Assembly (NCBI GenBank): GCA_963812855.1
Contig: CAWEWW010000011.1
Coordinates: forward strand, 196,028-220,027
Origin: an uncultured Acidobacteriaceae bacterium
Lineage (GTDB): Bacteria > Acidobacteriota > Terriglobia > Terriglobales > Acidobacteriaceae
DNA length: 24,000 nt
Direction of reading: 5' to 3'
Notes under the pieces: generated by a model
What the model was told of the DNA's origin: nothing
Seen by the model: only the letters and a program-made list of their open reading frames with translations
Database searches by the model: none
Made by a program: the position numbers and the translations under genes
In this document: positions 1,329 through 24,000 of the stretch, one piece after another
How positions within the stretch are numbered: position 1 is the first letter of the stretch
Layout: every line of letters begins with the position of its first letter

Positions 1329-1342
1329 GCCAGGAGCACACC

Positions 1343-6619: not shown

Positions 6620-6678
6620 CTGAATAAGATCCATGCCTTCACGTGGCCGAGGCCGCGAAAGCGAGTCGAGACGGCTTG

Positions 6679-6820
6679 ACAGTTTGCTGAAAAAGTCGGC
6701 CTAAGACGATTTTGAAGGGGCGTAGCTTTAGCTACGCCGTAGCAAGCCCTTTATATTTGTCATCCCGAACCGACTTTAGTCGGTTCGGGATCTGCTTTTC
6801 CGACTTTTTCAGCAAACTGT
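6679..6820. repeat. Compound nested palindromic element: a 21-bp perfect terminal inverted repeat enclosing two perfect hairpins with TTTA loops
   Basis: acagtttgctgaaaaagtcgg (6679-6699) is the exact reverse complement of ccgactttttcagcaaactgt (6800-6820). Inside it, ggcgtagc-ttta-gctacgcc occupies 6719-6738 and atcccgaaccgac-ttta-gtcggttcgggat occupies 6762-6791. The second hairpin carries REP copy B (6756-6795). Confidence 0.85.
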
Positions 6821-6857
6821 TGAGCCAGCCTACGGAATCTGCGGCTCCAACTTGTCG

Positions 6858-6905
6858 GTAAATGGGGTAGTGGTGCAATTCAAACTGCACCACTACCGTA
6901 AATGG
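6858..6905. repeat. 32-bp perfect hairpin (12-bp stem, 8-nt loop) flanked by an 8-bp direct repeat GTAAATGG. Candidate operator or miniature insertion upstream of the MBL gene
   Basis: ggtagtggtgca (6866-6877) pairs with tgcaccactacc (6886-6897). gtaaatgg occurs at 6858-6865 and again at 6898-6905, abutting both sides. The element ends 57 nt upstream of ATG 6962. Confidence 0.8.
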
Positions 6906-6961
6906 TTATGTTTAGCTAATTCCCGGGCACTTCGATATCATGGTGCGCGGACTGGAGGCTT

Positions 6962-8354: not shown

Positions 8355-8490
8355 CCTTCAGCTGTGACCTAAGTCATTTCGCCAATCGCACTGTCCTGTT
8401 CAGATATGACAACAGGCTGCAGGGGACGCTTTGCCCAATCGGCAGAGTATCGCTTCTGTTCCCGGCGGCCTGACCAGGAGACGACCAGCT

Positions 8491-8733
8491 ATGGCCGAAA
8501 TTCACTGTCCGGGACAAGATTTGCGTTATTGGAAGCTCGACGATATTTACGAACTCGACTGTGTTCACTGCGGCGCGCGAATCGAATTTTTCAAAGATGA
8601 CCCGCGCCGGCTTTGTAAAGCGTGTGGAAAGAGGATGCTGAACCCGCGCAACGATATGTCATGCGCGCAATGGTGCAAGTTCGCGAAAGAATGTTTGGCC
8701 AGCCTGGGCGCCGATCCGCCGGAGCATGATTAG
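8491..8733 (+). CDS. Small cysteine-rich (8 Cys) putative zinc-ribbon / metal-binding protein, 80 aa
   Basis: The sequence is MAEIHCPGQDLRYWKLDDIYELDCVHCGARIEFFKDDPRRLCKACGKRMLNPRNDMSCAQWCKFAKECL. It has two CxxC pairs (C24/C27, C42/C45) plus C6, C58, C62 and C68. AGGAG at 8476-8480 lies 10 nt before ATG 8491. Confidence 0.6.
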   Translation: MAEIHCPGQDLRYWKLDDIYELDCVHCGARIEFFKDDPRRLCKACGKRMLNPRNDMSCAQWCKFAKECLASLGADPPEHD

Positions 8734-9438: not shown

Positions 9439-10488
9439 TCAATACCCGTGCTCGCCGCCTTCTTCCAGCTTCACCTTGCCGCGAAACATGCGGTAGACAA
9501 AGACGAAATACCCGGCTGCCAGTATCATGCCGATCGTCCACCACACCAGGCCCACGCTCAATCCATGGGCGCCGGCGGCGCTGTTAGAAATAGTCAGGTT
9601 GTATTGCGAGCCGGTGCTGGCCGGCAGCACGTTGGGGTAGAGCGCGAAGACCGCTCCCACCAGCATGGCGATGATGTAAGTACAGGACGCCAGGAATGCT
9701 CCCTTTTCGTTTCGGCGCGAGTGCGCGAAGTACATGAATATCAGGCTGCCGATTACCACCGCGGGCACCAGATATCCGATCGGCCAGCGGGTGTAATTCT
9801 CCAGAATGTGGGGAACCGCGTACACGGTCGCGATCAGGCTGAAGATGGTCAGCAGCACCTGCACTGGCCATAACCACGACGCCACATTGCGCGCCCGCTG
9901 GTTCAACTCGCCCTCGGTCTTGGTCGCCAGATACAGCGATCCATGAACCACCAGCGTTACCAGCGCGACTACGCCGCACATCACCGTGTACCAGTCGAGG
10001 ATGCCGTTTTGCGCTCCCACGCGCCAGTTCGTCCAGAGAGCTTCAAAGAAATAGCCGTCAGGATTGAGCGGCACCCCGCGAACCACGTTGCCCAAGGCCG
10101 CACCGAAGAAGATGGCCAGCAGAATACTCGACACGCCAAAGATGGTGTCGAAGAAGCCTTTCCAGACTTGCTCCTGGATGTGGGTGCGAAATTCGATGCC
10201 GATAGCGCGCAGCATTAGCAGCCACAACACCATCATCAGCGGCAGATAAAATCCGCTGAAGCCCGACGCGTAGAGTTGGGGAAAAGCGAAGTACAGGGTT
10301 CCGCCCGCGGCCAGCAGCCACACTTCATTGCCATCCCATACCGGACCGATAGCGCGAATCACCATGCGTCGCTCCTGGTCGGTTTTCGCAATGAAAAGAT
10401 GGACTGCGCCTGCGCCCAGGTCGAAGCCGTCGAGGACCACATAGATGGCGACCATCACTGCCACAATCATGAACCAGATCGTTGCCAT
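9439..10488 (-). CDS. cydB: Cytochrome bd ubiquinol oxidase subunit II
   Basis: The N-terminus reads MATIWFMIVAVMVAIYVVLDGFDLGAG...AIGPVWDGNEVWLLAAGG, the canonical CydB N-terminus. The ATG lies 2 nt after the cydA stop. Confidence 0.95.
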   Translation of the reverse strand: MATIWFMIVAVMVAIYVVLDGFDLGAGAVHLFIAKTDQERRMVIRAIGPVWDGNEVWLLAAGGTLYFAFPQLYASGFSGFYLPLMMVLWLLMLRAIGIEFRTHIQEQVWKGFFDTIFGVSSILLAIFFGAALGNVVRGVPLNPDGYFFEALWTNWRVGAQNGILDWYTVMCGVVALVTLVVHGSLYLATKTEGELNQRARNVASWLWPVQVLLTIFSLIATVYAVPHILENYTRWPIGYLVPAVVIGSLIFMYFAHSRRNEKGAFLASCTYIIAMLVGAVFALYPNVLPASTGSQYNLTISNSAAGAHGLSVGLVWWTIGMILAAGYFVFVYRMFRGKVKLEEGGEHGY

Positions 10489-10490
10489 GG

Positions 10491-11873
10491 CTAGCGCACC
10501 TCCACAGAAGTCAGTTGGGCCGCATCGATCTGCCGGCGCAAGTCCGGCGGCAGCGTCGGCTCGGGCCCGTGCTCGATCTCGCGCCGCACCAGGAAGAGGA
10601 ATAGCACCGAAAGTAGGGTGTACATTCCCAGGAAGCCCAGGAAGCTGAACCAGGCATTACCCGCCGACACCATCTTTGAGTAGCCGTCTACCGTGCGCAG
10701 CAGGCCATAGACCAGCCAAGGCTGACGGCCGATTTCGGCTGTCATCCATCCCGCCGTGTTGGCGATGTAGGGAAACGGAAACGCCAGTAGCAGGATCCAC
10801 AGCATCCAGCGCGCCTCGTAAAGCTTCCTGCGCCATAAGAGAAATGTGGCCAGCGCAGTGATCGCGATGAAGATGGTCCCCAGCCCCACCATGATGTGGT
10901 AGGCGTAGTACAGCAGCGGAATGTTCTCCGGCCAATCTTGTTTGGGGACCGCGTTCAGCCCTTTGACCTCGGCACTCCAGCTTCTCCAGGTAAGAAAGCT
11001 CAGCATCTTGGGAACCACGATGGGATTATCGATCTTCTGCGCGACCACATCCGGCTGCCCGAGGATGACCAGCGGTGCGCCCGGCTGCGTCTCCCACAGC
11101 GCCTCCATCGCGGCCAGTGTGACCGGTTGATTGCGGGCCAGCATGCGGCCCTGGGCGTCGCCGGTGGGAATAATCTGAACTACGCTGACGAACAGCGCCA
11201 CGATCACGCCCACCCGTACGAAGATGCGTCCCTGATCGACATGCTTCTGGCTGAGCAGATAGAAGGCGCCGACGGCCGTCATTACGAACGTTCCGGTGAT
11301 AACCGCGCCGCTCATGTTATGCGCGTACTGCCACAAGGCCCAGGGATTCAGCACCAGTTGCCAGAAGCTGCTCAGCTGCACCGAGCCATCGGCCACCCGC
11401 TCATAGCCCACCGGATGCTGCATCCAGGCGTCGGTGGCAATGATGAAGTATCCCGACAGCCATGAGCCCAGGAAGACCATCACGGCCGAGAACCAATGCA
11501 TGCTTTTGGTCAGACGCTTCTCGCCGTACAGAAAGAGTCCCAGAAACGTCGACTCCAGGAAAAAGGCGAACAGGCCTTCCATGGCCAGCGTCTGGCCAAT
11601 CACGCCTCCGGCAAAGCGCGAGAAGTGCGACCAGTTGGTGCCAAACTGAAATTCCATGGGAATTCCAGTCACCACGCCGATCACGAAGTTGATGCCAAAG
11701 ATCTTGGCCCAGAAGCGGGCCGCGGCGTCGTAACGATCGTCTTTGGTCTTAAGCGCTAGCGTCTTCAGGATCACGATCAACGGCGCCAGTCCCATGGTCA
11801 ACTGTGGAAACAGGTAGTGATAGGTCACCGTGAAGGCGAAGTGCAGCCGGTGAATTAAGAGTGCGCTATCCAT
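10491..11873 (-). CDS. cydA: Cytochrome bd ubiquinol oxidase subunit I
   Basis: The sequence has MDSALLIHRLHFAFTVTYHYLFPQLTMGL, then ..MEFQFGTNW.. and ..EIGRQPWLVYGLLRT. The start was set at ATG 11873 (GAGG about 8 nt upstream); the track ORF extends 11 codons further. Confidence 0.95.
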   Translation of the reverse strand: MDSALLIHRLHFAFTVTYHYLFPQLTMGLAPLIVILKTLALKTKDDRYDAAARFWAKIFGINFVIGVVTGIPMEFQFGTNWSHFSRFAGGVIGQTLAMEGLFAFFLESTFLGLFLYGEKRLTKSMHWFSAVMVFLGSWLSGYFIIATDAWMQHPVGYERVADGSVQLSSFWQLVLNPWALWQYAHNMSGAVITGTFVMTAVGAFYLLSQKHVDQGRIFVRVGVIVALFVSVVQIIPTGDAQGRMLARNQPVTLAAMEALWETQPGAPLVILGQPDVVAQKIDNPIVVPKMLSFLTWRSWSAEVKGLNAVPKQDWPENIPLLYYAYHIMVGLGTIFIAITALATFLLWRRKLYEARWMLWILLLAFPFPYIANTAGWMTAEIGRQPWLVYGLLRTVDGYSKMVSAGNAWFSFLGFLGMYTLLSVLFLFLVRREIEHGPEPTLPPDLRRQIDAAQLTSVEVR

Positions 11874-11985
11874 GCTTGGTCCTCGGATGAAAACACTGCC
11901 CCCCAAGATGGGACGGCGGGCAGACGGGCTCGACGGTTTGCACCGGCAGCATTGCAGTTATGGTAGCGGTCAGGGCGAACAGCAA

Positions 11986-12005
11986 GCTGTGACCGACATC
12001 ACAGC
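11986..12005. promoter_or_regulatory. Perfect CRP/FNR-family type palindrome GCTGTGA-N6-TCACAGC in the cydA / secreted-protein divergent intergenic region
   Basis: gctgtgaccgacatcacagc contains TGTGA (11988-11992), a 6-nt spacer and TCACA (11999-12003), which is the CRP-type consensus half-sites with 7-bp perfect arms. It abuts a possible minus-strand -35/-10 pair: TTGCTG (reverse complement of 11980-11985), 17 nt, CATAAC (reverse complement of 11957-11962). Confidence 0.5.
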
Positions 12006-12107
12006 GGGCTGTGCGTGATACCCTCCGCCCCCGCAGCCGGGTCCGACTCTCTATCCGCTTTGGGTCTAAACTAAGGACGATGCGTCTGCACTCTTCCCGG
12101 CGGACTT

Positions 12108-13007
12108 TTGGCTCTGCTCCTCGGCCTGATCGCCATACTGCCACCGCTTTCCTTGGCAGCTCACGCCCAACAGCGCTCCCTGCGGCTGATCTTGAAGGAC
12201 GGCTCCTACCAGTCGGTGGTGAAGTACGAGATGCAAGGCGATCGGGTGCACTACCTGAGCGCGGAACGCTACGAGTGGGAGGACGTTCCGGCGTCGCTGA
12301 TCGATTGGGACGCGACCAACAAGTACAACAACGAACTCAGCAGCGGCAAACTGCACACCCTGGTGGAAACTCCGGAAGAGAAGGAAGAACGCGAAAAAGA
12401 AGAGGCCAACTCTCCGCAGATCGCACCGGGCCTGAAGCTGCCCGGCACCGGAGGCGTGTTTCTGTTCGACCAGTTTCAAGGCAAGCCCGAATTGGCCGAG
12501 ATTGTGCAAAACGGCAGTGAACTGAACAAGGCTGGAAAGAAGAAGAGCGTGCTGCGGTCGGCGATCAACCCGCTGGCGAGTACGAAACAGGCCTTCGAGA
12601 TCAAGGGTGACCACGCGCAAATTCAATCGCACGTGGCGCGGCCCACCCTCTACATCGACATTGACGAAGGTCCGAGAACTGATATCGCGCCCGCCGATCG
12701 ATTCCGTTTGGTCAGGACCGAGGTGAAAAAGGATGCGCGGGTCGTGGGAGGCGTAAAGGTCAGCGTCAGCGGCAAAGTCACCGAGCAGCAGAACCTGGCT
12801 ATTCCTATCGACGTTAGCAAACTGGGGACGGGCGAGTGGCTGAAGCTGGTTCCCAAGCAGGATCTGGCGCCGGGTGAGTATGCGGTGGTCGAGATGCTAA
12901 GTCCGGAGGAAATGAATCTCTATGTCTGGGATTTTGGGGTAAATCCCAATGCGCCGGTCAATCCCAATACCTGGCAACCGGTCAGCAAGACAGCGAGCAG
13001 CAATTAG
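12108..13007 (+). CDS. Secreted hypothetical protein (signal peptide ..LPPLSLAAHA|QQ). The 5' end is ambiguous
   Basis: 299-aa ORF beginning at TTG 12108 with an h-region ALLLGLIAILPPLSLAAHA, a Glu/Lys-rich linker (ETPEEKEEREKEEANSP) and a beta-rich C-terminal part. ATG 12080 (MRLHSSRRTF), with AAGGA just upstream, lies in the adjacent phase and would supply the missing positive n-region. Confidence 0.6.
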   Translation: MALLLGLIAILPPLSLAAHAQQRSLRLILKDGSYQSVVKYEMQGDRVHYLSAERYEWEDVPASLIDWDATNKYNNELSSGKLHTLVETPEEKEEREKEEANSPQIAPGLKLPGTGGVFLFDQFQGKPELAEIVQNGSELNKAGKKKSVLRSAINPLASTKQAFEIKGDHAQIQSHVARPTLYIDIDEGPRTDIAPADRFRLVRTEVKKDARVVGGVKVSVSGKVTEQQNLAIPIDVSKLGTGEWLKLVPKQDLAPGEYAVVEMLSPEEMNLYVWDFGVNPNAPVNPNTWQPVSKTASSN

Positions 13008-13055
13008 CAGTTGGCGATTTGGCGGTTAGAAGCGCGGGCTCGGGACCACGATATC

Positions 13056-14114
13056 CTATTGCTCCCCCGTGCCCACCAGACCCTGTCCGGCAACGGCGAT
13101 GTTGTCGCGTCCGGCCTGCTTGACCTGATACATCAGCTCATCGGCCCGATGCACCATGGCCTGCGGGGTGGTGGCGTCGGCCGGATAGCAGGCAATGCCA
13201 ATGCTGGCCCGCAGCCGCAGCGAGAATCCCTGCCCCGCCAGCCACTCTTTCGTGCGGAACATACTCATCAGGCGGCGCGCCACCAGCAGAGCAGCCTCTT
13301 TTCCGGTCTGTGGCAGCAGAATCGCGAACTCATCGCCGCCGTAACGGAAAGCGGCGTCCACCAGACGCAAATTTTCCCGCAGACAAAGTCCCACCTGCCC
13401 CAGCAGTTTGCTGCCAATCAGGTGTCCGTATTCGTCATTCACGCCCTTGAAGTGGTCGAGATCGAGGAACAGCAGGCTGAACTCGTAGCCGAAGCGTTCG
13501 GAGCGGTGCAATTCCTCCGACAGCACGGTAAACAAGTGGCGGGCGTTGTACAGTCCGGTGCAGTCGTCGGTGATGCTCAGTTCTTGAATGCGATTGACCG
13601 CGCGGGCGTTTTCGATGGCAATGGCGGCATAGTCGGCCAGCGCCTGCAGCAGCATCTCGCTGGGCTTGTAAACCTGCATATCGATGTTGACCAGCTGCAT
13701 GATGCCCAGCACCTTGCCCCCGGTCCGCACCGGCATGCATACCACCGAGGTCGGAGCAGCGAAGAAGTCGTCCTTGGTCGAGGGCTCAATCCGCTCGTCC
13801 TGGTTTACGTCCTGAATGACCAGCGGTTCCCCATGCTCAATCACCCAGCGGGCCAGGCTCTCGCCGGTCTTGAACTTCAGCGCATTGACGCTCTCGCATC
13901 CCTTGCCCACGGCTACCGTGTAGTACAGGTCCTCGCTGCTCTCATCCAGCATGAGCAGCGACCAGGTGGCCGGCTTAAAGTAAGCCGCCATCTTCTCCAG
14001 AATGGTTTGCAGGATGGTGTCGAGGTCCAGCGACGATGTAAGCGCTTTGGCAACATCGTGGAAGATCTTTAGTTCGTACGACTGGCGATCTTTGTCAGTG
14101 GCTGCGAACGTCAT
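13056..14114 (-). CDS. GAF domain-containing diguanylate cyclase (GGDEF) with an intact RxxD I-site
   Basis: The N-terminal GAF-like part reads LDLDTILQTILEKMAAYFKPATWSLLMLDE...VCMPVRTGGKVLGIMQLVN. The GGDEF domain reads TDDCTGLYNARHL...LFLDLDHFKGVNDEYGH...RLVDAAFRYGGDEFAILLP. The RLVD motif lies 5 residues before GGDEF. The start is ATG 14114 or GTG 14132. Confidence 0.9.
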   Translation of the reverse strand: MTFAATDKDRQSYELKIFHDVAKALTSSLDLDTILQTILEKMAAYFKPATWSLLMLDESSEDLYYTVAVGKGCESVNALKFKTGESLARWVIEHGEPLVIQDVNQDERIEPSTKDDFFAAPTSVVCMPVRTGGKVLGIMQLVNIDMQVYKPSEMLLQALADYAAIAIENARAVNRIQELSITDDCTGLYNARHLFTVLSEELHRSERFGYEFSLLFLDLDHFKGVNDEYGHLIGSKLLGQVGLCLRENLRLVDAAFRYGGDEFAILLPQTGKEAALLVARRLMSMFRTKEWLAGQGFSLRLRASIGIACYPADATTPQAMVHRADELMYQVKQAGRDNIAVAGQGLVGTGEQ

Positions 14115-14367
14115 GCAAGGACCCGGGCGCACAAGTCGTATGCTTGGGCAAAGCGACGAGAGCCGCTACCGCATGGCCCCTGATCGCAAACGGATAGACG
14201 GTTACGGCTTGCAAATCACCCTAATATTACAGAAAAACCGCCTCTCAAGCCATCGCTTCGCGTTGATCTCTTTTGAAGCTGCTTTTGGCTACAACCTCGC
14301 CGGAGCCGCCAGTCAGCCCTAAGCGCCTGGCCGGGCAACTTTCTCAGCCCTCGATTACAGTAGGGTC

Positions 14368-14568
14368 ATGGACCTGACGATCAATGGCGAGGAAAAGAGT
14401 TTTGCCAATTCGCTGTCTCTGGCCCAACTGGTCGAGCAGCTGGGCATGAAAGAGGATCGCGTGGCGGTCGAGCTGAACCGCGAGATCGTGCCCCGCGACC
14501 GCTGGGCCGACACGTCGCTAAAGGACGGCGATCGTCTCGAGATCGTGCACTTTGTCGGCGGCGGCTAG
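14368..14568 (+). CDS. thiS: ThiS/MoaD-family sulfur carrier protein (66 aa, C-terminal GG)
   Basis: The sequence is [66 protein letters not shown]. The length, the NGE start and the VxFVGGG end match the ThiS pattern. Confidence 0.85.
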
Positions 14569-14623
14569 GGCCTCGCGGGATTCCGATCACACGCCGCGAC
14601 CGTTCTTGTGACCGGCCAGCCTG

Positions 14624-16591
14624 CTAGGGTTGGCTATTGGATTGGCGCCAGCTGAGTCGCCTCATAATCCAGGGAGTCGGCAGGGTGAGATACTCGGCCA
14701 CCCACTGCGGTGCAACCGTTGCCAGAAAAACCGGCTGCAGACCCTGCTGATAGCGCTGCCGTTTCGGCCCGTCAAATCGCAAGACCCAGGAATCTCCGGT
14801 ATGGCTGATGGAGCTTCTCTGCAGAGTCTCCAGCCCTATCTTGGCTTCGATTTGTGCTAAGGAAGCTTCCGTAACCTCCTGGCCCGGGGGTACCGTCAAC
14901 TCGATTTCGAGAAAGGAAGGATTCTCCACAAAGAAGATGGCGCATAGCCGCAGGGACCCATCGCTTGCATTCCAGCCCGCGCCGTTGTACTCGATGCGCC
15001 AGCCGGGCTGAGAACTTAACGGCGCGCCCAGGCGATATTCAGCCGGCACATATTCCTTCGGAGTCGACAAGGTTTGTCCGGCCAGAATGTCTTTTATCGG
15101 AGGAGCCGCGGACGGCGCCGCGCGTTGAGCGTATGCCATCTCGGCGCCCTGCCATAAGACAAGCACGGCAAACAGTAGGCCAGCTACTTGTCCTGAATAT
15201 TGCATGCGTTTGCGGAACGGCTCCATGAGCCAACACCAGAGCCCGGTAAGGGCCGCCACAAACGCCGGAGCGAAATCGAGCATATAACGCGAGGCGATCA
15301 CCGGAACCTTCATGTAGAAAACGAATAGCAGCACGGCGGCGATGAACGACCATAAAATGATTACGAGATAGAGTGACAGCGGCGTCGAAGTGGAAGAATG
15401 CCACCACTTCCGCCCTGCCCACATTCCTACTATCCAGGCGAGGGCGATAAATACCGCATAAGAGACGTCGTAGGTGGTGAAGCACATTTCCCGCCAGCGA
15501 AGCATAGGCGACTGCCCAGGAAATATTCCGGAAGCATACCAGGCAAGATTATTAAACAATTTATCGAGAAATAAAGCTCCCAGTAATTCGCGGCCTGAAC
15601 CCAACAGCGATACTTGCTTAAAGGGATAACCAAACCGGGTAAAGTAAACGGAAGGTAGAAGCGCTCCTCCTTGCAAATTCAAACTCTGGCCAAATTCCCA
15701 GCCGCTCCCGAAACGCAGGAAGTTGGTGACGAACAGCAGGCCGCCACCAAATACAAACAGCAATACTCCGACAAGTAACCGTGGATTGCCGATAGACTTA
15801 ACCAGAGTAGCTTGAATGGAGTTGCCTGTGGCTGGCTTCCGAAGATAGCCGGCCATAATGAGCGACGCTATCACGAGCGTCGCAAATCCATAAAAGACTA
15901 AGGTAGGGCGGACGAAGCCGACGAGTCCGGCCAGAGCACAGAGGATCCAAAACCTTGACCACCGCGGGTTTCGGGCAAGTTGGATGGTTAAGCATACCAA
16001 CAGGATGCCCCAGAAATATACGTAGACCATAACTTCTTCGTAGATCAGCATCCGATAGCGAAGCAGGTTAATCAAAGGCGGAAACAGGAGGAATAAGCTT
16101 ACCGCACCCAGCCCTTTGAACCATTGCCACCGCTTCTCGTCTACTGTTTGCGGCCCTATTCCGGACTCGCTTTGCAATAAAGGTCCTAGCCAGGTACTTA
16201 AGACAAAGTAGGCGACGAACCCGATGAAGAGCGCCAGCGCAATAAATTCCGGAAAAGGCGAGAAGCCTAGTAACTTAGCCAAAGCCTCCCAGGGCGACTG
16301 CCAGATCGGAATACCTAGTCCCCAAACCTGTTGTACGCTTTGTTGGGACCAGCAAAGGTCGTGAGTTAAGTCGAATGGGTTGTGACTGAGAGCAAGACTA
16401 CCTCGCAAGAGGGCATCCGTCTGAAAATGAAACCAGGGGCTAGCCGAATCCCACGATTGCCAGGAGACTACTCCGCAGGCAGCCAGAAGCAAGAATGCAT
16501 ACACCAGCGCCACGCAACCCAGCAGCAAGCTCCATCGGGCATGGCGAAACCTGCCTGGAAGTTTGCGGTCTGGCACGACAAGGGCAGGCAT
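14624..16591 (-). CDS. Large polytopic membrane protein with a C-terminal extracytoplasmic domain (possible GT-C-like glycosyltransferase; family not recognised)
   Basis: More than 12 hydrophobic segments are followed by about 170 soluble residues (..YAQRAAPSAAPPIKDILAGQTL..EIELTVPPGQEVTEASLAQIEAKIG..). ATG 16591 lies 4 nt after the stop of the upstream GT39 gene. The track ORF start at 16681 would overlap that gene by 86 nt. Confidence 0.6.
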   Translation of the reverse strand: MPALVVPDRKLPGRFRHARWSLLLGCVALVYAFLLLAACGVVSWQSWDSASPWFHFQTDALLRGSLALSHNPFDLTHDLCWSQQSVQQVWGLGIPIWQSPWEALAKLLGFSPFPEFIALALFIGFVAYFVLSTWLGPLLQSESGIGPQTVDEKRWQWFKGLGAVSLFLLFPPLINLLRYRMLIYEEVMVYVYFWGILLVCLTIQLARNPRWSRFWILCALAGLVGFVRPTLVFYGFATLVIASLIMAGYLRKPATGNSIQATLVKSIGNPRLLVGVLLFVFGGGLLFVTNFLRFGSGWEFGQSLNLQGGALLPSVYFTRFGYPFKQVSLLGSGRELLGALFLDKLFNNLAWYASGIFPGQSPMLRWREMCFTTYDVSYAVFIALAWIVGMWAGRKWWHSSTSTPLSLYLVIILWSFIAAVLLFVFYMKVPVIASRYMLDFAPAFVAALTGLWCWLMEPFRKRMQYSGQVAGLLFAVLVLWQGAEMAYAQRAAPSAAPPIKDILAGQTLSTPKEYVPAEYRLGAPLSSQPGWRIEYNGAGWNASDGSLRLCAIFFVENPSFLEIELTVPPGQEVTEASLAQIEAKIGLETLQRSSISHTGDSWVLRFDGPKRQRYQQGLQPVFLATVAPQWVAEYLTLPTPWIMRRLSWRQSNSQP

Positions 16592-16595
16592 AGGT

Positions 16596-18299
16596 TTAAG
16601 GAACGGCCTTACTTTGCAGGTCCGATGGTATGTAATAAAGCCGCAGAGGACCCACGCGTTCCGTGGGAGGCATCCGCTCATACCAGGGATTAGGCAGGTT
16701 ATCGCGCCTGAGTTGGAACCGGGAAGCTTTAGCGAAAGTTGGACTTATAACATTCCAGCCCGGCGATGGATTGGCATCGTTCACTAACTTAACCGTGGGT
16801 AGACCATACCAGGCTTCCAGATAGTCGGAACGCATGACGCCGTCCAGCGTTCCCAGAGTGAATTCCTGCACTCCCAGCTGGTGCAGGCGTTGCGAGAGAA
16901 ACTTCAAATCTTGCCCCCAATCGTAATTGGAGTCGACCAGGATGCGATCGGGATTCTTGCCCGCGAAGCCATTGAAATAGGCCAGATAATCGGGATGATG
17001 GACCGCGACGGAGGTGACCATCCACACCAGCAGAACGCCCGCAGTGAGAGTCGAATTCATCGCTGTGCCCGCCCATTGCAGCAGTTGCACCAGCCCCAAT
17101 GCCGCGATGATGGAAAGTCCAAGGTAGATAGGCTCGATGTGACGGATGCCGATATCAATCCGGCCGAACATTGCTGGTACAAGAATGCCCAGGCTAAAAG
17201 CTAACGGAAAAAGATAGATCGGATTACGCCGTTGCCGAAAGCAGACAAAGATCCCCAGCGCCAGCAAAATGAGAAAGGCAATGGGCGTTTTGACCGCCAG
17301 CGCTACCGGAAAGTAGTACCACCAGCCGGTCATGCGGAACTCGCCAAACAGATAAGCCCCGTGGCCTCTTTGATCATGCTTCAGGGCATCTAGAATTCCC
17401 TGAAAGAACTCCGGAGCCGGCACGCTGAAGCTGAAACCGGGCACGACTCCATAGGAGAACCAGTAGGCCGCCCACATCACCATGATGGTTGCAAAACTGG
17501 CAAGCGCAAACGTTGGAATGCGCTGCCGGGTCAAGGCCCGCAATCCGTTCCAGCCAGGCCAGCGCACGGCCAGGTAACACGCCAGCGCCGCCAGCACCGT
17601 AAAACCGACATAACCCAGTGCGGTCGCCTTGGAGAGGAACGCCAAAGCCGCGCACAATCCCAGCAGCAGGGCTCTGGGGACATCAGGTTTTTCCGCCCAC
17701 AGTAAAGTAGCGAAGAAAGCAGCCCCGACGGTAGCTCCTACCGACATATCCGTGGTGGCGACGCCGGCATCGGCCAGCATGGTGGGCAACAAGGTGAACA
17801 AAGCTGTCGCCAGCACAGCCGCCGGCTTACCGAAAGCTTGCCAAGTCCAGGCGCAGACCACCAGGCAGGCGATCAGGAAGAACGGCAGATTCCCCAATCG
17901 CATGAGGAAGGTAATGCGATCGAAATTCCCCGAATTCGCCAGGATCGCGATTCCCTCTTCCCGCATATTGAGCAGGCCGGTGGGGCGCGCCCCCGCCAGG
18001 TACGGCCCCAACGCCTGCGCGGCCCGCGCCAGCGGCGGATTCTGGATGTCGATGGTGTACACGTGATTCGCGACATATTCCATGCCGCAGGCCAGGTGGG
18101 CGGGCTCGTCCGCGGTGAGGCTTAACGCGTTGTAGGTTGACACAATGCGCGCGCAGGCAATGCCTACCAGGATGACGCATAGCGCCACGCAGTATTTCTC
18201 AAGAAATGGGGCCAGACGAGTTTCCCAGAAACCGGCCTCTGCGGAACGGCCCGACGGCGACAGCCAGGCATGCCTTGGACTGGACTTCCCTATTGGCAT
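16596..18299 (-). CDS. Glycosyltransferase family 39-like (ArnT/PMT-type GT-C, lipid-linked sugar transferase)
   Basis: 567 aa and polytopic. It has an Asp-Glu motif in the first extracytoplasmic loop (LSLTADEPAHLACGMEY) and a later block, NLPFFLIACLVVCAWTWQAFGKPAAVLATALFTLLPTMLA, typical of ArnT/PMT_2-like proteins. The C-terminal domain is soluble. The assignment is by eye. Confidence 0.72.
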   Translation of the reverse strand: MPIGKSSPRHAWLSPSGRSAEAGFWETRLAPFLEKYCVALCVILVGIACARIVSTYNALSLTADEPAHLACGMEYVANHVYTIDIQNPPLARAAQALGPYLAGARPTGLLNMREEGIAILANSGNFDRITFLMRLGNLPFFLIACLVVCAWTWQAFGKPAAVLATALFTLLPTMLADAGVATTDMSVGATVGAAFFATLLWAEKPDVPRALLLGLCAALAFLSKATALGYVGFTVLAALACYLAVRWPGWNGLRALTRQRIPTFALASFATIMVMWAAYWFSYGVVPGFSFSVPAPEFFQGILDALKHDQRGHGAYLFGEFRMTGWWYYFPVALAVKTPIAFLILLALGIFVCFRQRRNPIYLFPLAFSLGILVPAMFGRIDIGIRHIEPIYLGLSIIAALGLVQLLQWAGTAMNSTLTAGVLLVWMVTSVAVHHPDYLAYFNGFAGKNPDRILVDSNYDWGQDLKFLSQRLHQLGVQEFTLGTLDGVMRSDYLEAWYGLPTVKLVNDANPSPGWNVISPTFAKASRFQLRRDNLPNPWYERMPPTERVGPLRLYYIPSDLQSKAVP

Positions 18300-18423
18300 G
18301 TGAAGATGAGGAACTCCGATTTCGGTGATAGCAGTTTACTGCAAGTCGTTTCGCAGGTTCAGCGGAAAAGCCCTTAGATTCGGGGTAAATGCAGGCCGGA
18401 CGCGAGTCTGGGGAGCCCTGGCC

Positions 18424-19887
18424 TCAGGCCACAATACTTTCCGCGCCGCGATATGGCAGAAAAATCGAAAAGCAGGTTCCCGAGCAAGCCGGGTCGACCG
18501 AACTGCGCAACAGCACGTGTCCGGCATGTTTATGGATGATGCCCAAGCTGAGCCACAATCCTAGGCCCGAGCCCTTGGTGCCCTTGGTGGTAAAGAAGGC
18601 GTCGAACACGCGTTGGCGCAGCTCGGGAGGAATTCCGCGCCCGTTATCGGCAATCAGGATGCGAACCCCTTCGCTTTGCAGGTGGCGCCAATCACGCGAA
18701 TGCGAGACTCGCAACACAATCTCGCCTCCCGGACCGGAAGCTTCGATGGCGTTGGACAAAATGTTGGAAACCGCCTGCTGCAGAGCTGACGGCAGCCCCC
18801 GAATCATCAGGTCCGGCGCAAACTGGCGGCGAACCGAAATCTTGCGCGCCGCAATTTGCGGCCCATACAGCGACAGCACGCTGTCCACCAGTTCGGCCAC
18901 ATTCAAATCGATGGGAGCGGTGGCTTCCCGGTGAAAGGCCAGCGTCTGCTTGGTGATGCGCGAGACCCGAGCCAACTCAGCCGTGGCTTGCGCGATATAA
19001 ACTTTCAGATCCGCCTCACTGCAACCTTGATCCATCAGGTAAAGCAGATTGCCCACGGCCTCCAATGGATTGTTGATTTCGTGGGCGATGCTGTGCGCCA
19101 AACGCCCGGTGGCGGCCAGGCGTTCGCTCATTTTCAGCGCTTCTTCCGCCCGCCGGCTGTCGGTGACATCCGAGACCACGAAGATCGTGCCCGAGGGATT
19201 TCCATCCTGGTCGACGATCTGATCGGTCGAGATCACAAACCAGCGTTGATCGGGAGACTCGACCTCCATTCTCTGGCGCTCGGTCGGATAATTGGCGGGG
19301 GGCAGGGTGATCTGCAGCGATTCGGCCAGAATGTCGGATAGTTTGTGCCCTTCGATTTCCGAATAGCGCTTCCCGGTCAGCTCCGACATAGCACGATTGC
19401 AACGCTGCACGCGGCCTTGCTCATCGAGCAATCCGATCGCCTCGGACAACGAATCAAACGTAACCTGCCACTGGCGCGCCGACAGCCGCGATACGGCCTC
19501 GGCTTTGCGCAGCCGCAGCAGCGCCCTCACCGTGGCCAGCAAAACCGGCGGCTCGACCGGCTGGGTCAGATAGGCATCGGCGCCGCCCTCCAGCGACATG
19601 ACCCGGCTCTCGCTGGTGACGAACGATGCCGAAAGGTGAATGACCGGCAGGCTGCGGGTGAGGGGGTTGCCTTTGATCCGGCGACAGACTTCGTAGCCGG
19701 TCATGTCGGGCAAACGAATGTCCAGCAAAACCAGGTCGGGCAGGTCGGCGGCTTTGGCCAGCGCCTCCCGGCCGGTACGAGCTTCCACCACCTCATAGCC
19801 CGCGCTCTTGAGAGTCCGGGAAGTGATGTAGCGGTTCTCTTCCCGATCGTCAACCACCAGGATTCTGGCCGGGGTCTCATCCGGCAT
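18424..19887 (-). CDS. Response-regulator receiver - PAS - histidine kinase (REC-PAS-HisKA-HATPase)
   Basis: REC: RILVVDDREENRY...DLVLLDIRLPDMTGYE (Asp56). PAS-like: WQVTFDSLSEAIGLLDEQGRVQRCNRAMSELTG. H-box: RLAHSIAHEINNPL (His269). ATP-binding boxes: NILSNAIEAS, DNGRGI, TTKGTKGSGLGL. The start overlaps the upstream gene by 11 nt. Confidence 0.9.
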   Translation of the reverse strand: MPDETPARILVVDDREENRYITSRTLKSAGYEVVEARTGREALAKAADLPDLVLLDIRLPDMTGYEVCRRIKGNPLTRSLPVIHLSASFVTSESRVMSLEGGADAYLTQPVEPPVLLATVRALLRLRKAEAVSRLSARQWQVTFDSLSEAIGLLDEQGRVQRCNRAMSELTGKRYSEIEGHKLSDILAESLQITLPPANYPTERQRMEVESPDQRWFVISTDQIVDQDGNPSGTIFVVSDVTDSRRAEEALKMSERLAATGRLAHSIAHEINNPLEAVGNLLYLMDQGCSEADLKVYIAQATAELARVSRITKQTLAFHREATAPIDLNVAELVDSVLSLYGPQIAARKISVRRQFAPDLMIRGLPSALQQAVSNILSNAIEASGPGGEIVLRVSHSRDWRHLQSEGVRILIADNGRGIPPELRQRVFDAFFTTKGTKGSGLGLWLSLGIIHKHAGHVLLRSSVDPACSGTCFSIFLPYRGAESIVA

Positions 19888-22036
19888 GACGCTGCTTTCG
19901 GGCCGGCAGGACTAGGTTCGCCTTGATCAACAATTCGTGCAACTCCTGGCTGGCGTAGGTTTCATTCAGAATGCGCTTGGGAAAAATGCCTATCGTCTGT
20001 CCGCGGATAATTTCCTCTTCTGCACTGTCCAGCGTCTTGGAGCTGTGAATAATCACCGGAATGTCGCGGGTCTGGGACCCGGCGCGAAGCTCCTCCAGAA
20101 CCTGAAGCCCGGCCATGTCGGGCATCAGGAGATCGAGAAAAATTAAATCGGGCGGCTCCCGGTCAACCAGGGCAAGGGCCTCCCGGCCGCCTCTGGCCTC
20201 GAGAATCTGGAAATTCCATTCCGACAATTTCTCGCGCAGCACATAGCGCGATACTTCATTGTCGTCCACCAGGAGCACCTTCTTTCGCGGTTGCCGCCCG
20301 GCGACTGAATACAGAGCCGAACAGAAGGTCTCCTGGTCGACCGGCTTTCGTAAGAACTGGTCCGCTCCGTACGAAAGTACTCTACGGGCCTCGTCCATAA
20401 TGCTGATCACGATAATCGGCACCTCTGCCGTCTGCTCCGCAGATCGCAGCTCGCGCACGTAGTCGGAGCAATTCTGGCCGGCCAGGTACAAGTCAAGGAT
20501 GATGGCCGCGGGGCGAAGGTTGGTCAGAGACTTGCGGGATTGCTGGAGCGAGGAAACCGTGATCGCCTGGAAATCGGTTTTCTGCAAATAACTCTCATAG
20601 ACAAATGAGGTTTCAGGATTGTCCTCGACGATCAGGACCGGAAGTTTCCCAGGCTGCAACGGCTCGCTGGTCTGCTCCTGTGCCTGCTCGGCGCCACCGC
20701 TCCGGGAATGGATCGGAATCACCGCGTAGAAGCTGGATCCCTTCCCCACCTCACTTTCCACCGACACGCTGCCGCCTAGAAGTTCAGCCAGGTTGCGGCA
20801 CAACGGCAATCCCAGGCCGGTGCCCTTTACCCGCTCCTGCACGGCGTTTTCGATCTGGGTAAACTCTTTGAAGATCAGCTCCTGGTCGGCAGGCGCGATT
20901 CCGATCCCGGTATCTTTCACGGCAAAGATAATCGTGTCCTTCGGGCCCGGCGACGCCGATACGCGGACTTCGCCTTCCAAGGTGAATTTCAATGCATTGG
21001 AGATGAAGTTACGCAGAATTTGCGACACCTTACCGTCGTCGGTGTGCATCACCGGCAAGTCCGAGGTGTCTTCGAAGATCAATTCCAGCGAGGTGTCCAG
21101 CAACAGCGGCCGCAACATGCCGCGCAGCGCGCCGAACATCTCCTGAATCTCGAACTCCTTCGGCTTGACCGTTACTTTGCCTGCCTCCACCTTGGCCAAA
21201 TCGAGCAAATCGTTGACTACTTCGTAGAGCTCCTGCGCCGACCGCTGGATGAAGCGAACCTGTTTTTCCTGCTCGCCCGTGAGATCGCCGTCGACCTTCT
21301 CCTGCAAAATGCGAGTGAGGGAAATAATGGAGTTCAGGGGCGTGCGAAACTCGTGCGACATGTTGGAGATGAAATTGGTCTTCAACTCCGAGGCGCGCCG
21401 CAGGTAATCGGCACGCTCGTCCAGTTCCGCGTAGAGCGCCACTACACCGCGGTTGGTATCTTCCAGTTCGCGATTCAGCAGTGCCAGCTCTTCTTGCCGG
21501 GATCGCAAATCGGCCAGCGTCCGCAGCAATTCACGGTTCTGCCGTTCCACTTCCTCAAACGGATTTTGCGGCTCGCGATTATTCAGTTCATCGACCAGCT
21601 TCTGGAAGCCGCTGGAGCTCATCACCGGAGCATGCGGCGGCAAGCGCTTGTCCATGGAGACCTGGGTACCGGCCGCGGCACTCTCGATCTGAAAGGAATC
21701 CATCAACCGGCGAGTTCCGACGATACCCATACCCAGCCCGGTGTCTGATTTGTAGGAGCCGTCCAGAACCTCGGACAGATTGTCGATTCCCGGCCCGGCG
21801 TCGGTTACCACAATCCGTAACGCCGGCGCGGGCTCGCTGTGCAGAGAAAACTCGACCTTACCTTTGCGCGCATAGCGAAAAGCGTTGCGGGCGATTTCAG
21901 AGGTCGCGGTGGCGAGGCGAATCTGGTCTTGCCGGTCGAATCCCAGCAGGGCGGCAATTTCGCGGGCCCGCTGCCGCGCCTGCACCACGTCTCGTTCGTA
22001 GCGCAACTCCAGCGACAAGATGGTCTGGGACTTCAT
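19877..22036 (-). CDS. Hybrid sensor kinase: N-terminal RsbT/RsbW-type GHKL domain, coiled-coil linker, HisKA, HATPase and two REC domains (719 aa)
   Basis: Residues 1-135 read LATATSEIARNAFRYARKGKVEF..VTDAGPGIDNLSEVLDGSYKSDTGLGMGIVGTRRLMD, which is anti-sigma-kinase-like. The linker reads ELLRTLADLRSRQEELALLNRELEDTNRGVVALYAELDE. H-box: SNMSHEFRTPLN (His228). N/G boxes: NFISNALKFT, DTGIGI, GTGLGL. REC1 is centred on Asp515 (AAIILDLYL) and REC2 on Asp635 (LIFLDLLMPDM). The ATG overlaps the upstream stop (ATGA at 22033-22036). Confidence 0.9.
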   Translation of the reverse strand: MKSQTILSLELRYERDVVQARQRAREIAALLGFDRQDQIRLATATSEIARNAFRYARKGKVEFSLHSEPAPALRIVVTDAGPGIDNLSEVLDGSYKSDTGLGMGIVGTRRLMDSFQIESAAAGTQVSMDKRLPPHAPVMSSSGFQKLVDELNNREPQNPFEEVERQNRELLRTLADLRSRQEELALLNRELEDTNRGVVALYAELDERADYLRRASELKTNFISNMSHEFRTPLNSIISLTRILQEKVDGDLTGEQEKQVRFIQRSAQELYEVVNDLLDLAKVEAGKVTVKPKEFEIQEMFGALRGMLRPLLLDTSLELIFEDTSDLPVMHTDDGKVSQILRNFISNALKFTLEGEVRVSASPGPKDTIIFAVKDTGIGIAPADQELIFKEFTQIENAVQERVKGTGLGLPLCRNLAELLGGSVSVESEVGKGSSFYAVIPIHSRSGGAEQAQEQTSEPLQPGKLPVLIVEDNPETSFVYESYLQKTDFQAITVSSLQQSRKSLTNLRPAAIILDLYLAGQNCSDYVRELRSAEQTAEVPIIVISIMDEARRVLSYGADQFLRKPVDQETFCSALYSVAGRQPRKKVLLVDDNEVSRYVLREKLSEWNFQILEARGGREALALVDREPPDLIFLDLLMPDMAGLQVLEELRAGSQTRDIPVIIHSSKTLDSAEEEIIRGQTIGIFPKRILNETYASQELHELLIKANLVLPARKQRHAG

Positions 22037-23055
22037 GCGGCCTCTACCTCGGCACTCTGCCGGACCGCCAGGATGGAAGCGTCATCGCGTCCGCGCTTGA
22101 AGTCGCGATACAAAACCCCGGCGATCAAACCCGGATGCCGCTTACGCAGGCCTGCATACTTGCCCAGGTCCCACTGGGTGCTGAGCCCGTCAGAATGCAA
22201 AATCAGCAAGGCGTTGGCCGGGAAATCGTATTCCAGTTCGACAGCGTGCGTCATCACGTGGCCAACCGTGCCGTTATGCGAGACCAGGCTCTGCGATTTT
22301 CCCTCGCCCACGATGGAGCCGGAGATGTTTCCCACTCCGCAATAGCGAACTTTGTGGGTAGCCCGATTGATCTCGGCAACGCTGGCTACGGCGCCGCGGG
22401 TGGCCCGCAGGGCCGCATGCAGCCGATGCACAATTCTCTCCGGAGATTTGTCCCAATTCTCCTGAAACACCGCGATGGCCAGCTCGCTGGCATCCGCGGC
22501 CCCCACTCCGTGGCCCAATCCATCCACGGCGAGGCACAGGAAGCGGTCGCCTTGTGTATGGAAGGATAGGCCGTCGCCGCACACCGACTCTCCGTGGATC
22601 GGCGCCAGCAGACATCCTACCTCGAAGGCGGAGGTGCCCGCCGGTTTTGAGCGTATCTCCACCAGCCGGGCGAAACATGCGGTGCCGTGGGTGGGGTTGC
22701 TATACACGTCGAAGCCGGCAGTCAGGCGGGCTACTGCTCCCAAGCCATTGCCGGGCGTGCCGGCGGTGGAATAGCCGTCTTTGAGCGACTTCTGCAGATC
22801 GGCAATGCCCGGGCCTTTGTCCAGCGCATACACGTCGATTCCGCTATTGGGCCCGGTTTGCCAGCCCAGCAACACCATCTCTCCCGAGGCAGCGTGAGCC
22901 AGGACGTTTCTGGCCAACTCCATCACCACGATACTCAACTCTCCGGACCGGGTATCGCTCAACCCAAGTTTTTCCGCCAGGCGCGCCGCCGCCCGCCGCG
23001 CCTCTCCCAGGTGCGTCGAGTCGGTGATCTTAATGTCGTGCTGGCCCACTATCAA
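22033..23055 (-). CDS. GHKL (RsbW/RsbT-like ATP-binding) domain fused to a PP2C/SpoIIE-family serine phosphatase
   Basis: The N-terminal part reads ARRAAARLAEKLGLSDTRSGELSIVVMELARNVLAHA...ALDKGPGIADLQKSLKDGYSTAGTPGNGLGAVARL. The PP2C part reads VCGDGLSF...LAVDGLGHGVGAADAS...VGNISGSIV...LILHSDGL. The start is proposed at TTG 23055 (or GTG 23049), 1 nt after the rsbT-like stop. The track ATG at 23115 would overlap that gene by 59 nt. Confidence 0.85.
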   Translation of the reverse strand: MIVGQHDIKITDSTHLGEARRAAARLAEKLGLSDTRSGELSIVVMELARNVLAHAASGEMVLLGWQTGPNSGIDVYALDKGPGIADLQKSLKDGYSTAGTPGNGLGAVARLTAGFDVYSNPTHGTACFARLVEIRSKPAGTSAFEVGCLLAPIHGESVCGDGLSFHTQGDRFLCLAVDGLGHGVGAADASELAIAVFQENWDKSPERIVHRLHAALRATRGAVASVAEINRATHKVRYCGVGNISGSIVGEGKSQSLVSHNGTVGHVMTHAVELEYDFPANALLILHSDGLSTQWDLGKYAGLRKRHPGLIAGVLYRDFKRGRDDASILAVRQSAEVEAA

Positions 23056-23056
23056 G

Positions 23057-23464
23057 TTATTTCCACCGCGTAATCGTAACCACCGTACCCTGGCCAGGCT
23101 GAGATTGAATTTCAAAGTCGTTGACCAACCGTTTGCTTCCGCTCAATCCCAGACCCAGGCCGCCGCCCGTGGTGTAACCGTCCCGCATCGCCTGCTCGAT
23201 ATCGGCGATGCCCGGTCCCTGATCTTCGAAACGCAGCCGCAACCCCTGGCGTATGCCGTTTTCGACGACCTCGATCCGGCAATTCCCGCCTTTGCCATGC
23301 TCCAGCGCATTGCGCGCCAATTCGCTGGCGGCGGTGACAATCTTGGTTTGATCGACCAGGCCGAACTTGAGTTGGACCGACACTTGCCGCACCTTCTGGC
23401 GAACCAGAACGATGTCAGATGCCGAGGTGATGGGAATTGCTTCAGACGCCGGCGGAGCCATCAT
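23057..23464 (-). CDS. rsbT: RsbT-like anti-sigma regulatory factor (serine/threonine protein kinase, GHKL)
   Basis: The sequence runs MMAPPASEAIPITSASDIVLVRQKVRQVSVQLKFGLVDQTKIVTAASELARNALEHGKGG..FEDQGPGIADIEQAMRDGYTTGGGLGLGLSGSKRLVNDFEIQS..TITRWK. It is collinear with Bacillus RsbT as I recall it. The start at ATG 23464 overlaps the rsbS-like stop by 23 nt. The longer track ORF prefix is W/P/C-rich out-of-frame overlap. Confidence 0.85.
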   Translation of the reverse strand: MMAPPASEAIPITSASDIVLVRQKVRQVSVQLKFGLVDQTKIVTAASELARNALEHGKGGNCRIEVVENGIRQGLRLRFEDQGPGIADIEQAMRDGYTTGGGLGLGLSGSKRLVNDFEIQSQPGQGTVVTITRWK

Positions 23465-23846
23465 CCTCCTGCATTCCCCGGTGGAAGGTTCCCCGGCTGG
23501 CTTGCAGCAGTTCCATGCCCGATTCCACGTTGAGCGCGGTCCTGACCCCGGGCAACGACATGCCCAACTCCACCAGCGTGATGGCCACCGCGGGCTGCAT
23601 GCCGACCACCACGGTCTCGGCGTCCAACACACGAGCCATGGCGGCAATGTTGGCCAGCATGCGCCCGATGAAGGAATCGACAATCTCCAGCGAGGAGATG
23701 TCGATCAGTACTCCGATCGCTCCCGTGCGGGAAATCTGCTCGGTCAGGTCGTCCTGCAGGGTCATGGCCAGCCGATCATGCATGTCGACCTGGATGGTCA
23801 CCAGCAGATAGCTGCCCATGCGCAAAATCGGAATGCGCTCCATCAT
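23442..23846 (-). CDS. rsbS: RsbS-like single-domain STAS protein (stressosome scaffold/antagonist)
   Basis: The sequence reads MMERIPILRMGSYLLVTIQVDMHDRLAMTLQDDLTEQISRTGAIGVLIDISSLEIVDSFIGRML..VVVGMQPAVAITLVELGM. It closely parallels Bacillus RsbS (IPILKL..LLVSIQ..GVVIDLTSVDMIDSFIA..LTGIQPAVAVTLIELGI). This includes the phosphorylatable Ser of the DSF motif, here Ser58. Confidence 0.9.
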   Translation of the reverse strand: MMERIPILRMGSYLLVTIQVDMHDRLAMTLQDDLTEQISRTGAIGVLIDISSLEIVDSFIGRMLANIAAMARVLDAETVVVGMQPAVAITLVELGMSLPGVRTALNVESGMELLQASRGTFHRGMQEDDGSAGV

Positions 23847-24000
23847 GCCTCCTTGGCAGCCGCAGAACGAGGCGTGGCCTCGGAAATCTTGACCACCGTG
23901 CGACCACTCTTGCTCAGCGCCAGCGCGAAGGCATCAGACAGTTTCGCTTTGGTGATGACGTCCACCAGATTGATGCCCAGGTGAACGATGGTCTGCGCGA
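23843..24000 (-). CDS. rsbR: RsbR-like STAS protein, C-terminal 51 codons only (5' part beyond the window)
   Basis: My translation of the minus strand from 23998 to 23843 gives AQTIVHLGINLVDVITKAKLSDAFALALSKSGRTVVKISEATPRSAAAKEA*. This resembles the RsbR C-terminal STAS end (..EIAQTIVxLGIxLxxVxT..). Its TGA overlaps the rsbS ATG (ATGA at 23843-23846). Confidence 0.65.
   Translation of the reverse strand, partial: AQTIVHLGINLVDVITKAKLSDAFALALSKSGRTVVKISEATPRSAAAKEA

Follow-up and report, generated by a model that had tools for sequence, protein, structure and literature searches.

A stressosome-type rsbRSTX cassette with RsbT-type domains on its phosphatase and on a histidine kinase, in an Acidobacteriaceae contig and related loci

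Stressosomes are formed by RsbR and RsbS, which assemble into a pseudo-icosahedral complex of about 1.5-1.8 megadaltons (MDa) that binds RsbT. How they signal in bacteria without RsbU, RsbV, RsbW and σB is an acknowledged open question. Here we describe a six-gene cassette in a 24,000-nucleotide stretch of DNA (the window) from an uncultured Acidobacteriaceae bacterium (GenBank assembly GCA_963812855.1, contig CAWEWW010000011.1, positions 196,028 to 220,027). The cassette occupies positions 18424-24000, on the minus strand. Minimal rsbRSTX modules with directly adjoining two-component genes, and without σB, are known from comparative genomics and from experimental work, for example VvRSTX with VvD1/VvD2 in Vibrio vulnificus (PMC9237108, PMC10014275). 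The original prediction for this locus was therefore right that the coupling of RsbRST to two-component outputs is already in the literature. The RSTX unit has also been described as widely conserved (PMC9237108). In the V. vulnificus type, RsbX is a single-domain PP2C phosphatase and RsbR has a globin sensor. The kinases downstream carry RsbU_N or no recognised docking domain, and no interaction between VvRsbT and VvD1 was detected (PMC9237108). For outputs other than sigma factors, the module known to dock RsbT is RsbU_N (PMC9237108, PMC12143880).

As read from its genes, the locus is a stressosome-type RsbRST(X) module. RsbR, RsbS, RsbT and, after rsbT, an RsbX-type PP2C are all present. 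The module contains three RsbT-type domains. One is free, one is N-terminal on the RsbX-type PP2C (the fusion phosphatase X), and one is N-terminal on a hybrid histidine kinase (H1), to which it is joined via a long conserved helix. The last gene encodes a second-tier kinase (H2). We favour, with a probability of roughly 0.55, the following reading. The cassette is an RsbR(RsbRD_N)-RsbS-RsbT-RsbX module that feeds a two-tier His-Asp phosphorelay and not RsbU-RsbV-RsbW-σB, and the fused RsbT domains dock X and H1 on the core of STAS domains. The conserved layout suggests how stressosomes could signal without a sigma factor.

The fused domains were assigned with profile hidden Markov models (HMMs). 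We built them for the free kinase (T), the N-domain of X (X_N) and the N-domain of H1 (H1_N) from 74-81 related loci. RsbT, RsbW and SpoIIAB of Bacillus subtilis served as references, and a look-up confirmed their exact match to RSBT_BACSU, RSBW_BACSU and SP2AB_BACSU. An RsbT structure is absent from the PDB sequence set, hence this use of family HMMs against B. subtilis references. Single-sequence PDB searches with the fused N-domains of X and H1 gave no significant match. The T model scored 146 bits with RsbT and 34 bits with SpoIIAB, and had no hit to RsbW. Likewise, H1_N scored 127 bits with RsbT, 53 with SpoIIAB and 26 with RsbW; the values for X_N were 101, 28 and 16 bits, respectively. 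Profile-profile comparison links T with H1_N (E = 5e-44), T with X_N (3e-30) and X_N with H1_N (5e-23).

A six-way alignment of the three window domains with the references gives a similar picture. The identity to B. subtilis RsbT is 45% (free RsbT), 38% and 31% for the window domains, and 23% each for SpoIIAB and RsbW. All six sequences keep the arginine of helix α1 (RsbT R19), the Glu/Asn of the N-box and the Asp/Gly of G1/G2. R19 aligns with SpoIIAB R20, a residue that contacts SpoIIAA; we call it the STAS-contact arginine. Within each of the three groups, conservation of N-box, G1 and G2 across loci is 90% or more. The catalytic glutamate (the equivalent of RsbT E45) is retained in all of them. 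Judged by these profiles and motifs, both fused GHKL N-domains are RsbT paralogues and are not RsbW/SpoIIAB-like. The GHKL N-domains of the original prediction are thus present in a more precise form, and RsbT binding to them becomes one of two live mechanisms. Previous works implicated RsbT R19 in RsbT-RsbU binding (PMC12143880) and proposed the Glu45 equivalent as the catalytic base in Listeria RsbT (PMC9237128).

The core proteins are close to those of solved stressosomes. The rsbS gene (23442-23846, minus strand, as are all six genes) encodes 134 amino acids with a single STAS domain according to the Pfam search, which was made for all six proteins at E≤0.01. In the PDB it matches RsbS 6jhk (E = 1.9e-30), RsbS 6qcm (4.9e-30) and Moorella MtS 2vy9 (3.5e-25). 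The phospho-acceptor Ser58 (VDSF, codon 23673-23675) is invariant in 71/71 cassette homologues. The rsbT gene (23057-23464) encodes a free-standing RsbT-type GHKL Ser/Thr kinase of 135 amino acids, with HATPase_c and HATPase_c_2 matches. Its motifs are E48/N52 in the N-box, D81 in G1 and G102 in G2. HMM and PDB searches agree with the earlier assignment of these two genes to STAS/RsbS and to the RsbT kinase family.

Only the 3' end of rsbR (23843-24000) lies in the window. These last 51 codons and the stop cover the final part of the STAS domain and the C-terminal tail. Their reading frame is the third, and runs from position 24000 to the stop codon at 23843-23845, which overlaps the rsbS ATG. 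By itself, the fragment of 51 amino acids has no Pfam or NCBIfam match. Its identity comes from a twin contig (L001, a 279-kb ENA contig), which we reached via an X homologue (P0001, 99% identical). Window positions 12051-24000 align to this contig at 98.9% nucleotide identity, which points to the same or a sister strain. There, 50 of the 51 residues are identical to the C-terminus of a 291-amino-acid RsbRD_N+STAS protein. The prediction that the fragment is the C-terminus of RsbR, with its sensor beyond position 24000, is borne out, and the sensor read from the twin is RsbRD_N. This RsbR matches the RsbR of V. vulnificus (7o0i, 2e-35) and of Listeria (7b0u, 4e-33) in the PDB. Its Ser177 and Thr211, the counterparts of Listeria Thr175 and Thr209 in the alignment, are invariant in 75/75 homologues.

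The phosphatase X is encoded at 22033-23049. The mechanically called open reading frame (ORF), 23115-22033, begins at an upstream TTG and is too long. Its homologues set the start at the GTG at 23049, which gives 338 amino acids with HATPase_c_2 and SpoIIE matches. The RsbT-like GHKL domain spans amino acids 1-135 (22645-23049), and the RsbX-type PP2C domain amino acids 146-338 (22036-22614). The metal-binding residues are Asp159, Asp176 (DGLGHG), Asp287, Asp322 and Asp323. Catalytic and ATP-binding motifs are invariant in 47 homologues. For the PP2C half, the closest PDB sequences are Moorella MtX (3zt9, 5e-14) and B. subtilis RsbX (3w40, 1.5e-12).

We modelled the whole of X with AlphaFold2. 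The mean predicted local distance difference test (pLDDT) was 90 and the predicted template modelling score (pTM) 0.89, with the two domains packed at high confidence. In Foldseek, the C-domain matches MtX 3zt9 (template modelling (TM) score 0.91, 2.0 Å) and RsbX 3w40 (TM 0.82), and the N-domain matches SpoIIAB 1th8 (TM 0.75). Because the PP2C is closest to MtX and RsbX in both sequence and fold, we take it as the RsbX of the RSTX module with an added kinase-type domain. It is most likely the reset phosphatase of this known module and not an output. The PP2C to which the module had been predicted to be wired is there, probably in this reset role.

These data bear on a simpler scheme, in which no megadalton complex exists. 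RsbR and RsbS would be small soluble antagonists of the three kinase domains, similar to RsbV or SypA, and X a bifunctional enzyme like SypE or Rv1364c. Fusions of a kinase and a PP2C acting on STAS proteins are known. They include SypE (cited in PMC12826045) and Rv1364c, whose structure (3ke6) is among the Foldseek matches of X. The size of a complex is also unreadable from sequence, and the assembly of a 1.5-1.8 MDa particle is here predicted from the likeness of RsbR and RsbS to complex-forming subunits. Nevertheless, the subunits known to form stressosomes (E 1e-30 to 1e-35) are much nearer to RsbS and the STAS domain of RsbR than other STAS proteins are. Between phyla, RsbS and this STAS domain are 75-83% identical, compared with about 45-50% for the enzymes. 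Such extreme conservation fits many simultaneous contacts. Moreover, the gene order R-S-T-X is that of stressosome modules (PMC9237108). We consider a simple partner switch unlikely.

The output kinase H1 (19877-22036) is a single gene of 719 amino acids in the window, as in other species. Pfam assigns HATPase_c_2, HisKA, HATPase_c and two Response_reg domains. From the N-terminus, it has the RsbT-like GHKL domain (21632-22036), a helical linker (21401-21631), HisKA (21179-21382) with His228 (codon 21353-21355), HATPase_c (20711-21040), and the receivers REC1 (20297-20644) with Asp515 and REC2 (19937-20278) with Asp635. A homologue search with the H1 N-terminus had only HisKA-linked proteins among its matches, mostly fragments. 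H2 (18424-19887) has 487 amino acids with Response_reg, PAS, HisKA and HATPase_c. Its REC (19528-19863) contains Asp56 and its HisKA (18928-19107) His269; the PAS domain is at 19150-19473 and HATPase_c at 18451-18792. With these phospho-sites located, the residues named beforehand (RsbS Ser58 in VDSF, H1 His228, Asp515 and Asp635, and H2 Asp56) are all correct. A Pfam match to RsbU_N was found in none of the six proteins; the N-domains match HATPase_c_2 instead. The window encodes no HPt domain, in H1 or elsewhere, and no DNA-binding response regulator.

For H1 residues 1-370, AlphaFold2 gave a model with a pLDDT of 84 and a pTM of 0.56, so domain placement is less certain than in the X model. 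It predicts the GHKL domain (1-131), a short helix, and then one continuous helix (159-245) that runs through the H-box His228 into the DHp. The motif NRGVVALYAEL (amino acids 195-205, positions 21422-21454) lies in this linker and is shared, unchanged, by all H1 homologues in the 80 loci compared, from cyanobacteria to acidobacteria. It is part of a longer block, LNRELEDTNRGVVALYAELDE, in the stretch of the long helix that separates the RsbT-like domain from His228. Similar motifs presumably occur in actinobacterial HATPase_c_2-SpoIIE proteins. In the twin contig, the region 11014-13175 corresponds to window 19877-22036, and there H1 is split into ORFs of 417, 191 and 130 amino acids. This split is likely the result of assembly indels, since the 12-kb alignment has nine gap openings.

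The cassette is widely distributed. We found more than 4376 homologues of X at E≤1e-10 in the protein collection, and relatives of the X fusion in at least 571 species (contigs with one genome per species). With the match of RsbS to a solved stressosome RsbS at E 2e-30, this number places the cassette far beyond chance. The 80 species-representative loci compared belong to Acidobacteriota, many Cyanobacteria (among them Microcoleus, Nostoc and Calothrix), Gemmatimonadota, Alpha- and Deltaproteobacteria, Planctomycetota, Methylomirabilia and Kapaibacteriota. The cassette thus spans at least eight phylum-level groups, including many cyanobacteria. The idea that it is peculiar to high-GC soil lineages does not stand. 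The nearest named relatives are Acidobacteriaceae and Korobacteraceae metagenome-assembled genomes.

Collinearity was counted on the 67 loci with enough flank. The order R>S>T>X>H1 is strictly collinear in 59 of them, so the gene neighbourhood is conserved, a check that had been proposed for this locus. The remaining eight show insertions or rearrangements; one has no RST within reach and one an apparently truncated H1. The free rsbT is kept at essentially all 67 loci. In an ORF-based count, a GHKL-type kinase follows the GHKL-PP2C in 61/62 loci. In a census of the same type, RsbS, RsbT or the phosphatase had seemed to be missing from some loci. We rejected this, as tblastn showed artefacts of ORF de-overlapping, and the loci were recounted. 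Most related loci have a REC-(PAS)-histidine kinase gene, of HisKA or HisKA_3 type, at the sixth position. Microcoleus FACHB-68 presents the same six genes with the same Pfam content, and in a Microcoleus subgroup H1 is without receivers.

Some variants of the layout were observed. Six Acidobacteriota loci (L043-L045, L049, L057 and L079, at about 6400-8500) have two tandem RsbRD_N-STAS paralogues 5' of rsbS, and their sixth gene is a HisKA_3-type REC-kinase. In L043, a second REC-PAS-HisKA_3 kinase comes next, together with a NarL/GerE-type response regulator that is a candidate for the transcriptional output. In three cyanobacterial loci (L021, L039 and L081, at about 10000-11600), an extra gene of about 0.7-1.5 kb lies between X and the GHKL-kinase and breaks the tight junction.

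In the reading that we favour, RsbR and RsbS would build the STAS core. The RsbT-like domains would act as STAS-docking and Ser/Thr-kinase modules and would place X and H1 directly on this core. Phosphorylation of RsbS Ser58 and of RsbR Ser177/Thr211 would be written by RsbT-type domains and erased by the fused PP2C. This cycle is putative; its catalytic motifs are conserved. The phosphorylation state of the core would set whether the H1 N-domain is bound. Binding or release would then pass through the continuous helix to His228 and switch autophosphorylation. The phosphoryl group could move from H1 His228 to the H1 receivers (Asp515/Asp635) and to H2 Asp56. From Asp56, it would reach H2 His269 and finally an unlinked response regulator, not encoded in the window.

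We prefer docking of the fused domains because a mere platform for free RsbT would need no intact ATP motifs, catalytic glutamate or STAS-contact arginine. This reading fits docking on the Listeria stressosome, which suggests that several RsbT molecules are neighbours on RsbS and RsbR (PMC9237128). SypE, with an RsbW-like kinase, a REC and a PP2C, sets the phosphorylation of the STAS protein SypA, according to work cited in PMC12826045; this fits as well. However, three points weigh against docking. The fused copies do not replace the free RsbT, and its universal presence also fits a free RsbT that activates the fused domains. The ATP motifs only indicate selection on nucleotide binding, which falls short of phosphorylation of STAS proteins by the fused domains. 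Finally, it is released and not tethered RsbT that is active in Bacillus.

The original prediction implies a different mechanism. The stressosome would hold only the free RsbT. Stress-freed RsbT would bind the GHKL N-domains of X and H1 as a pseudo-homodimer and activate them, as it activates RsbU via RsbU_N. Since SpoIIAB and RsbW, the GHKL anti-sigma kinases, form homodimers, heterodimers of paralogues are conceivable, and the retention of free rsbT at essentially every locus agrees with this. RsbT activates RsbU through its N-domain and linker (PMC12143880), and H1 has an invariant linker motif beside its N-domain. On the other hand, a passive docking domain needs no invariant N-box, G1, G2, catalytic glutamate or STAS-contact arginine, and both fused domains keep all of them. 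RsbU_N is absent from all six proteins, and RsbT is not known to self-associate. We hold activation by released RsbT to be less likely than docking, but to be its chief rival.

Docking of X and H1 could also be taken one step further. The three RsbT paralogues might hold distinct sites on one STAS core, and H1 and X would be integral to a megadalton stressosome-histidine kinase supercomplex. The Ser/Thr pattern of the core would be converted into a His-Asp output via the NRGVVALYAEL helix. Each kinase domain might serve a single one of the invariant phospho-sites RsbS Ser58, RsbR Ser177 and RsbR Thr211. We propose this arrangement tentatively, as a possibility.

The six genes are tightly packed. 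There is a 4-nt ATGA overlap between rsbR and rsbS, a 23-nt overlap between rsbS and rsbT, a 7-nt gap between rsbT and X, a 4-nt ATGA overlap between X and H1, and an 11-nt overlap between H1 and H2. Such junctions are too tight for internal signals, and the packing argues for a single operon. In a consensus scan, no terminator turned up between the genes and promoter-like sites were at or below chance, which argues neither for nor against an operon. All in all, the prediction of six consecutive minus-strand genes with these domains is supported by Pfam and by the RsbR match on the twin contig.

The surroundings were examined for a conventional sigma switch. Upstream of rsbR, the twin contig presents a gap of 296 bp, then a KDPG/KHG-aldolase-family gene and an RND efflux system, and no RsbV, RsbW or sigma factor. 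This agrees with the earlier claim that the locus has none of the three. Among the 103 nearest flanking ORFs of the related loci, there is no recurrent family (three members at most), and no sigma, STAS or anti-sigma family recurs. The cassette is thus self-contained.

These results concern a fourth account, in which the fused GHKL domains, like those of OsaC or RsbW, would sequester a sigma factor encoded elsewhere, and the cassette would still end in a sigma switch. The source annotations could suggest it, since these proteins go there under generic names, 'ATP-binding SpoIIE family protein phosphatase' and 'anti-sigma regulatory factor'. There is also a gene for an extracytoplasmic function (ECF) sigma factor at 822-1328, 17 kb off. 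Nevertheless, the fused domains are RsbT-type and not RsbW- or SpoIIAB-type, and a sigma factor recurs nowhere among the 103 flanking ORFs. ECF sigma factors are not known to be regulated by GHKL anti-sigma factors. We find a hidden sigma switch highly improbable.

The ECF-type gene itself (Sigma70_r2 and r4_2, plus strand) is unrelated to the cassette. It overlaps a gene for a 229-amino-acid membrane protein without Pfam match (pair 822-2014, plus strand), which is probably its anti-sigma factor. Downstream of H2, there are two large membrane proteins without Pfam match and then a GAF-GGDEF protein. The membrane proteins (14624-18299, minus strand, 567 and 685 amino acids) resemble GT-C/ArnT-type glycosyltransferases by eye only, and are also in the twin contig. 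The GAF-GGDEF diguanylate cyclase (13056-14132) shares the minus strand with the cassette and is 4.3 kb downstream of it. Its position there is not conserved, and its link to the cassette is unsupported. We considered these downstream genes as parts of the system and rejected them, as they are absent after the cassette in the nearest relatives (L004-L006) and elsewhere. Finally, at 6962-8354 (plus strand), an MBL-fold ORF (6962-7927) and a double-rhodanese ORF (7740-8354) share 188 nt but differ in frame, and the MBL-fold ORF seems to be out of frame at its end. A frameshift in a single MBL-rhodanese gene, from a sequencing error or in a pseudogene, is the probable cause.

The cassette offers a concrete and testable answer to how stressosomes signal without a sigma cascade. 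A kinase and a reset phosphatase each have their own RsbT domain, and the coupling could be a direct docking on the STAS core. Its hosts include abundant soil and biocrust organisms with poorly known stress physiology. Since gene order and key residues are nearly invariant across phyla, a mechanism obtained in one tractable host (Nostoc, Microcoleus or Silvibacterium) would transfer widely. If the supercomplex exists, it would be a general sigma-independent stressosome output in hundreds of species of at least eight phylum-level groups.

Compared with the σB cascade of Bacillus and Listeria, the cassette shares the RsbR sensor with STAS, the RsbS serine, RsbT (45% identical to that of B. subtilis), an RsbX-type PP2C, the RsbR phospho-sites and the R-S-T order. 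It differs in having no RsbU or RsbU_N, RsbV, RsbW or sigma factor in the proteins and neighbourhood examined. In addition, its RsbX has an RsbT-like N-domain, and its output is a histidine kinase with another RsbT-like domain.

The V. vulnificus-type RSTX is similar in that the module is followed by two-component genes without σB. In contrast, the sensor of the cassette is RsbRD_N, and both its phosphatase and its kinase carry RsbT paralogues. Moorella thermoacetica has MtR-MtS-MtT-MtX with the diguanylate cyclase MtG. MtS and MtX are among the closest solved relatives, and the output is likewise non-sigma. However, MtG is coupled via RsbU_N (PMC12143880), and MtX is without a kinase domain.

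SypE of Vibrio fischeri and Rv1364c of Mycobacterium tuberculosis also have a GHKL serine kinase and a PP2C in one chain, with a presumed STAS substrate (PMC12826045; 3ke6). SypE has a central REC and an RsbW-like kinase, whereas X is without a REC. Rv1364c has the order PAS-PP2C-kinase-STAS, not seen in X. Both proteins stand outside any RsbRST module; they have no domain of RsbT type, and their PP2C is not of RsbX type.

We found no description in the full-text literature of RsbT-like domains fused to RsbX or to a kinase, though an earlier mention in a 2005 survey is possible. In summary, the coupling of a stressosome RSTX module to two-component genes is already known. The apparently new feature, as judged from the absence of such a description, is the fusion of RsbT-type domains to the phosphatase and to the kinase.

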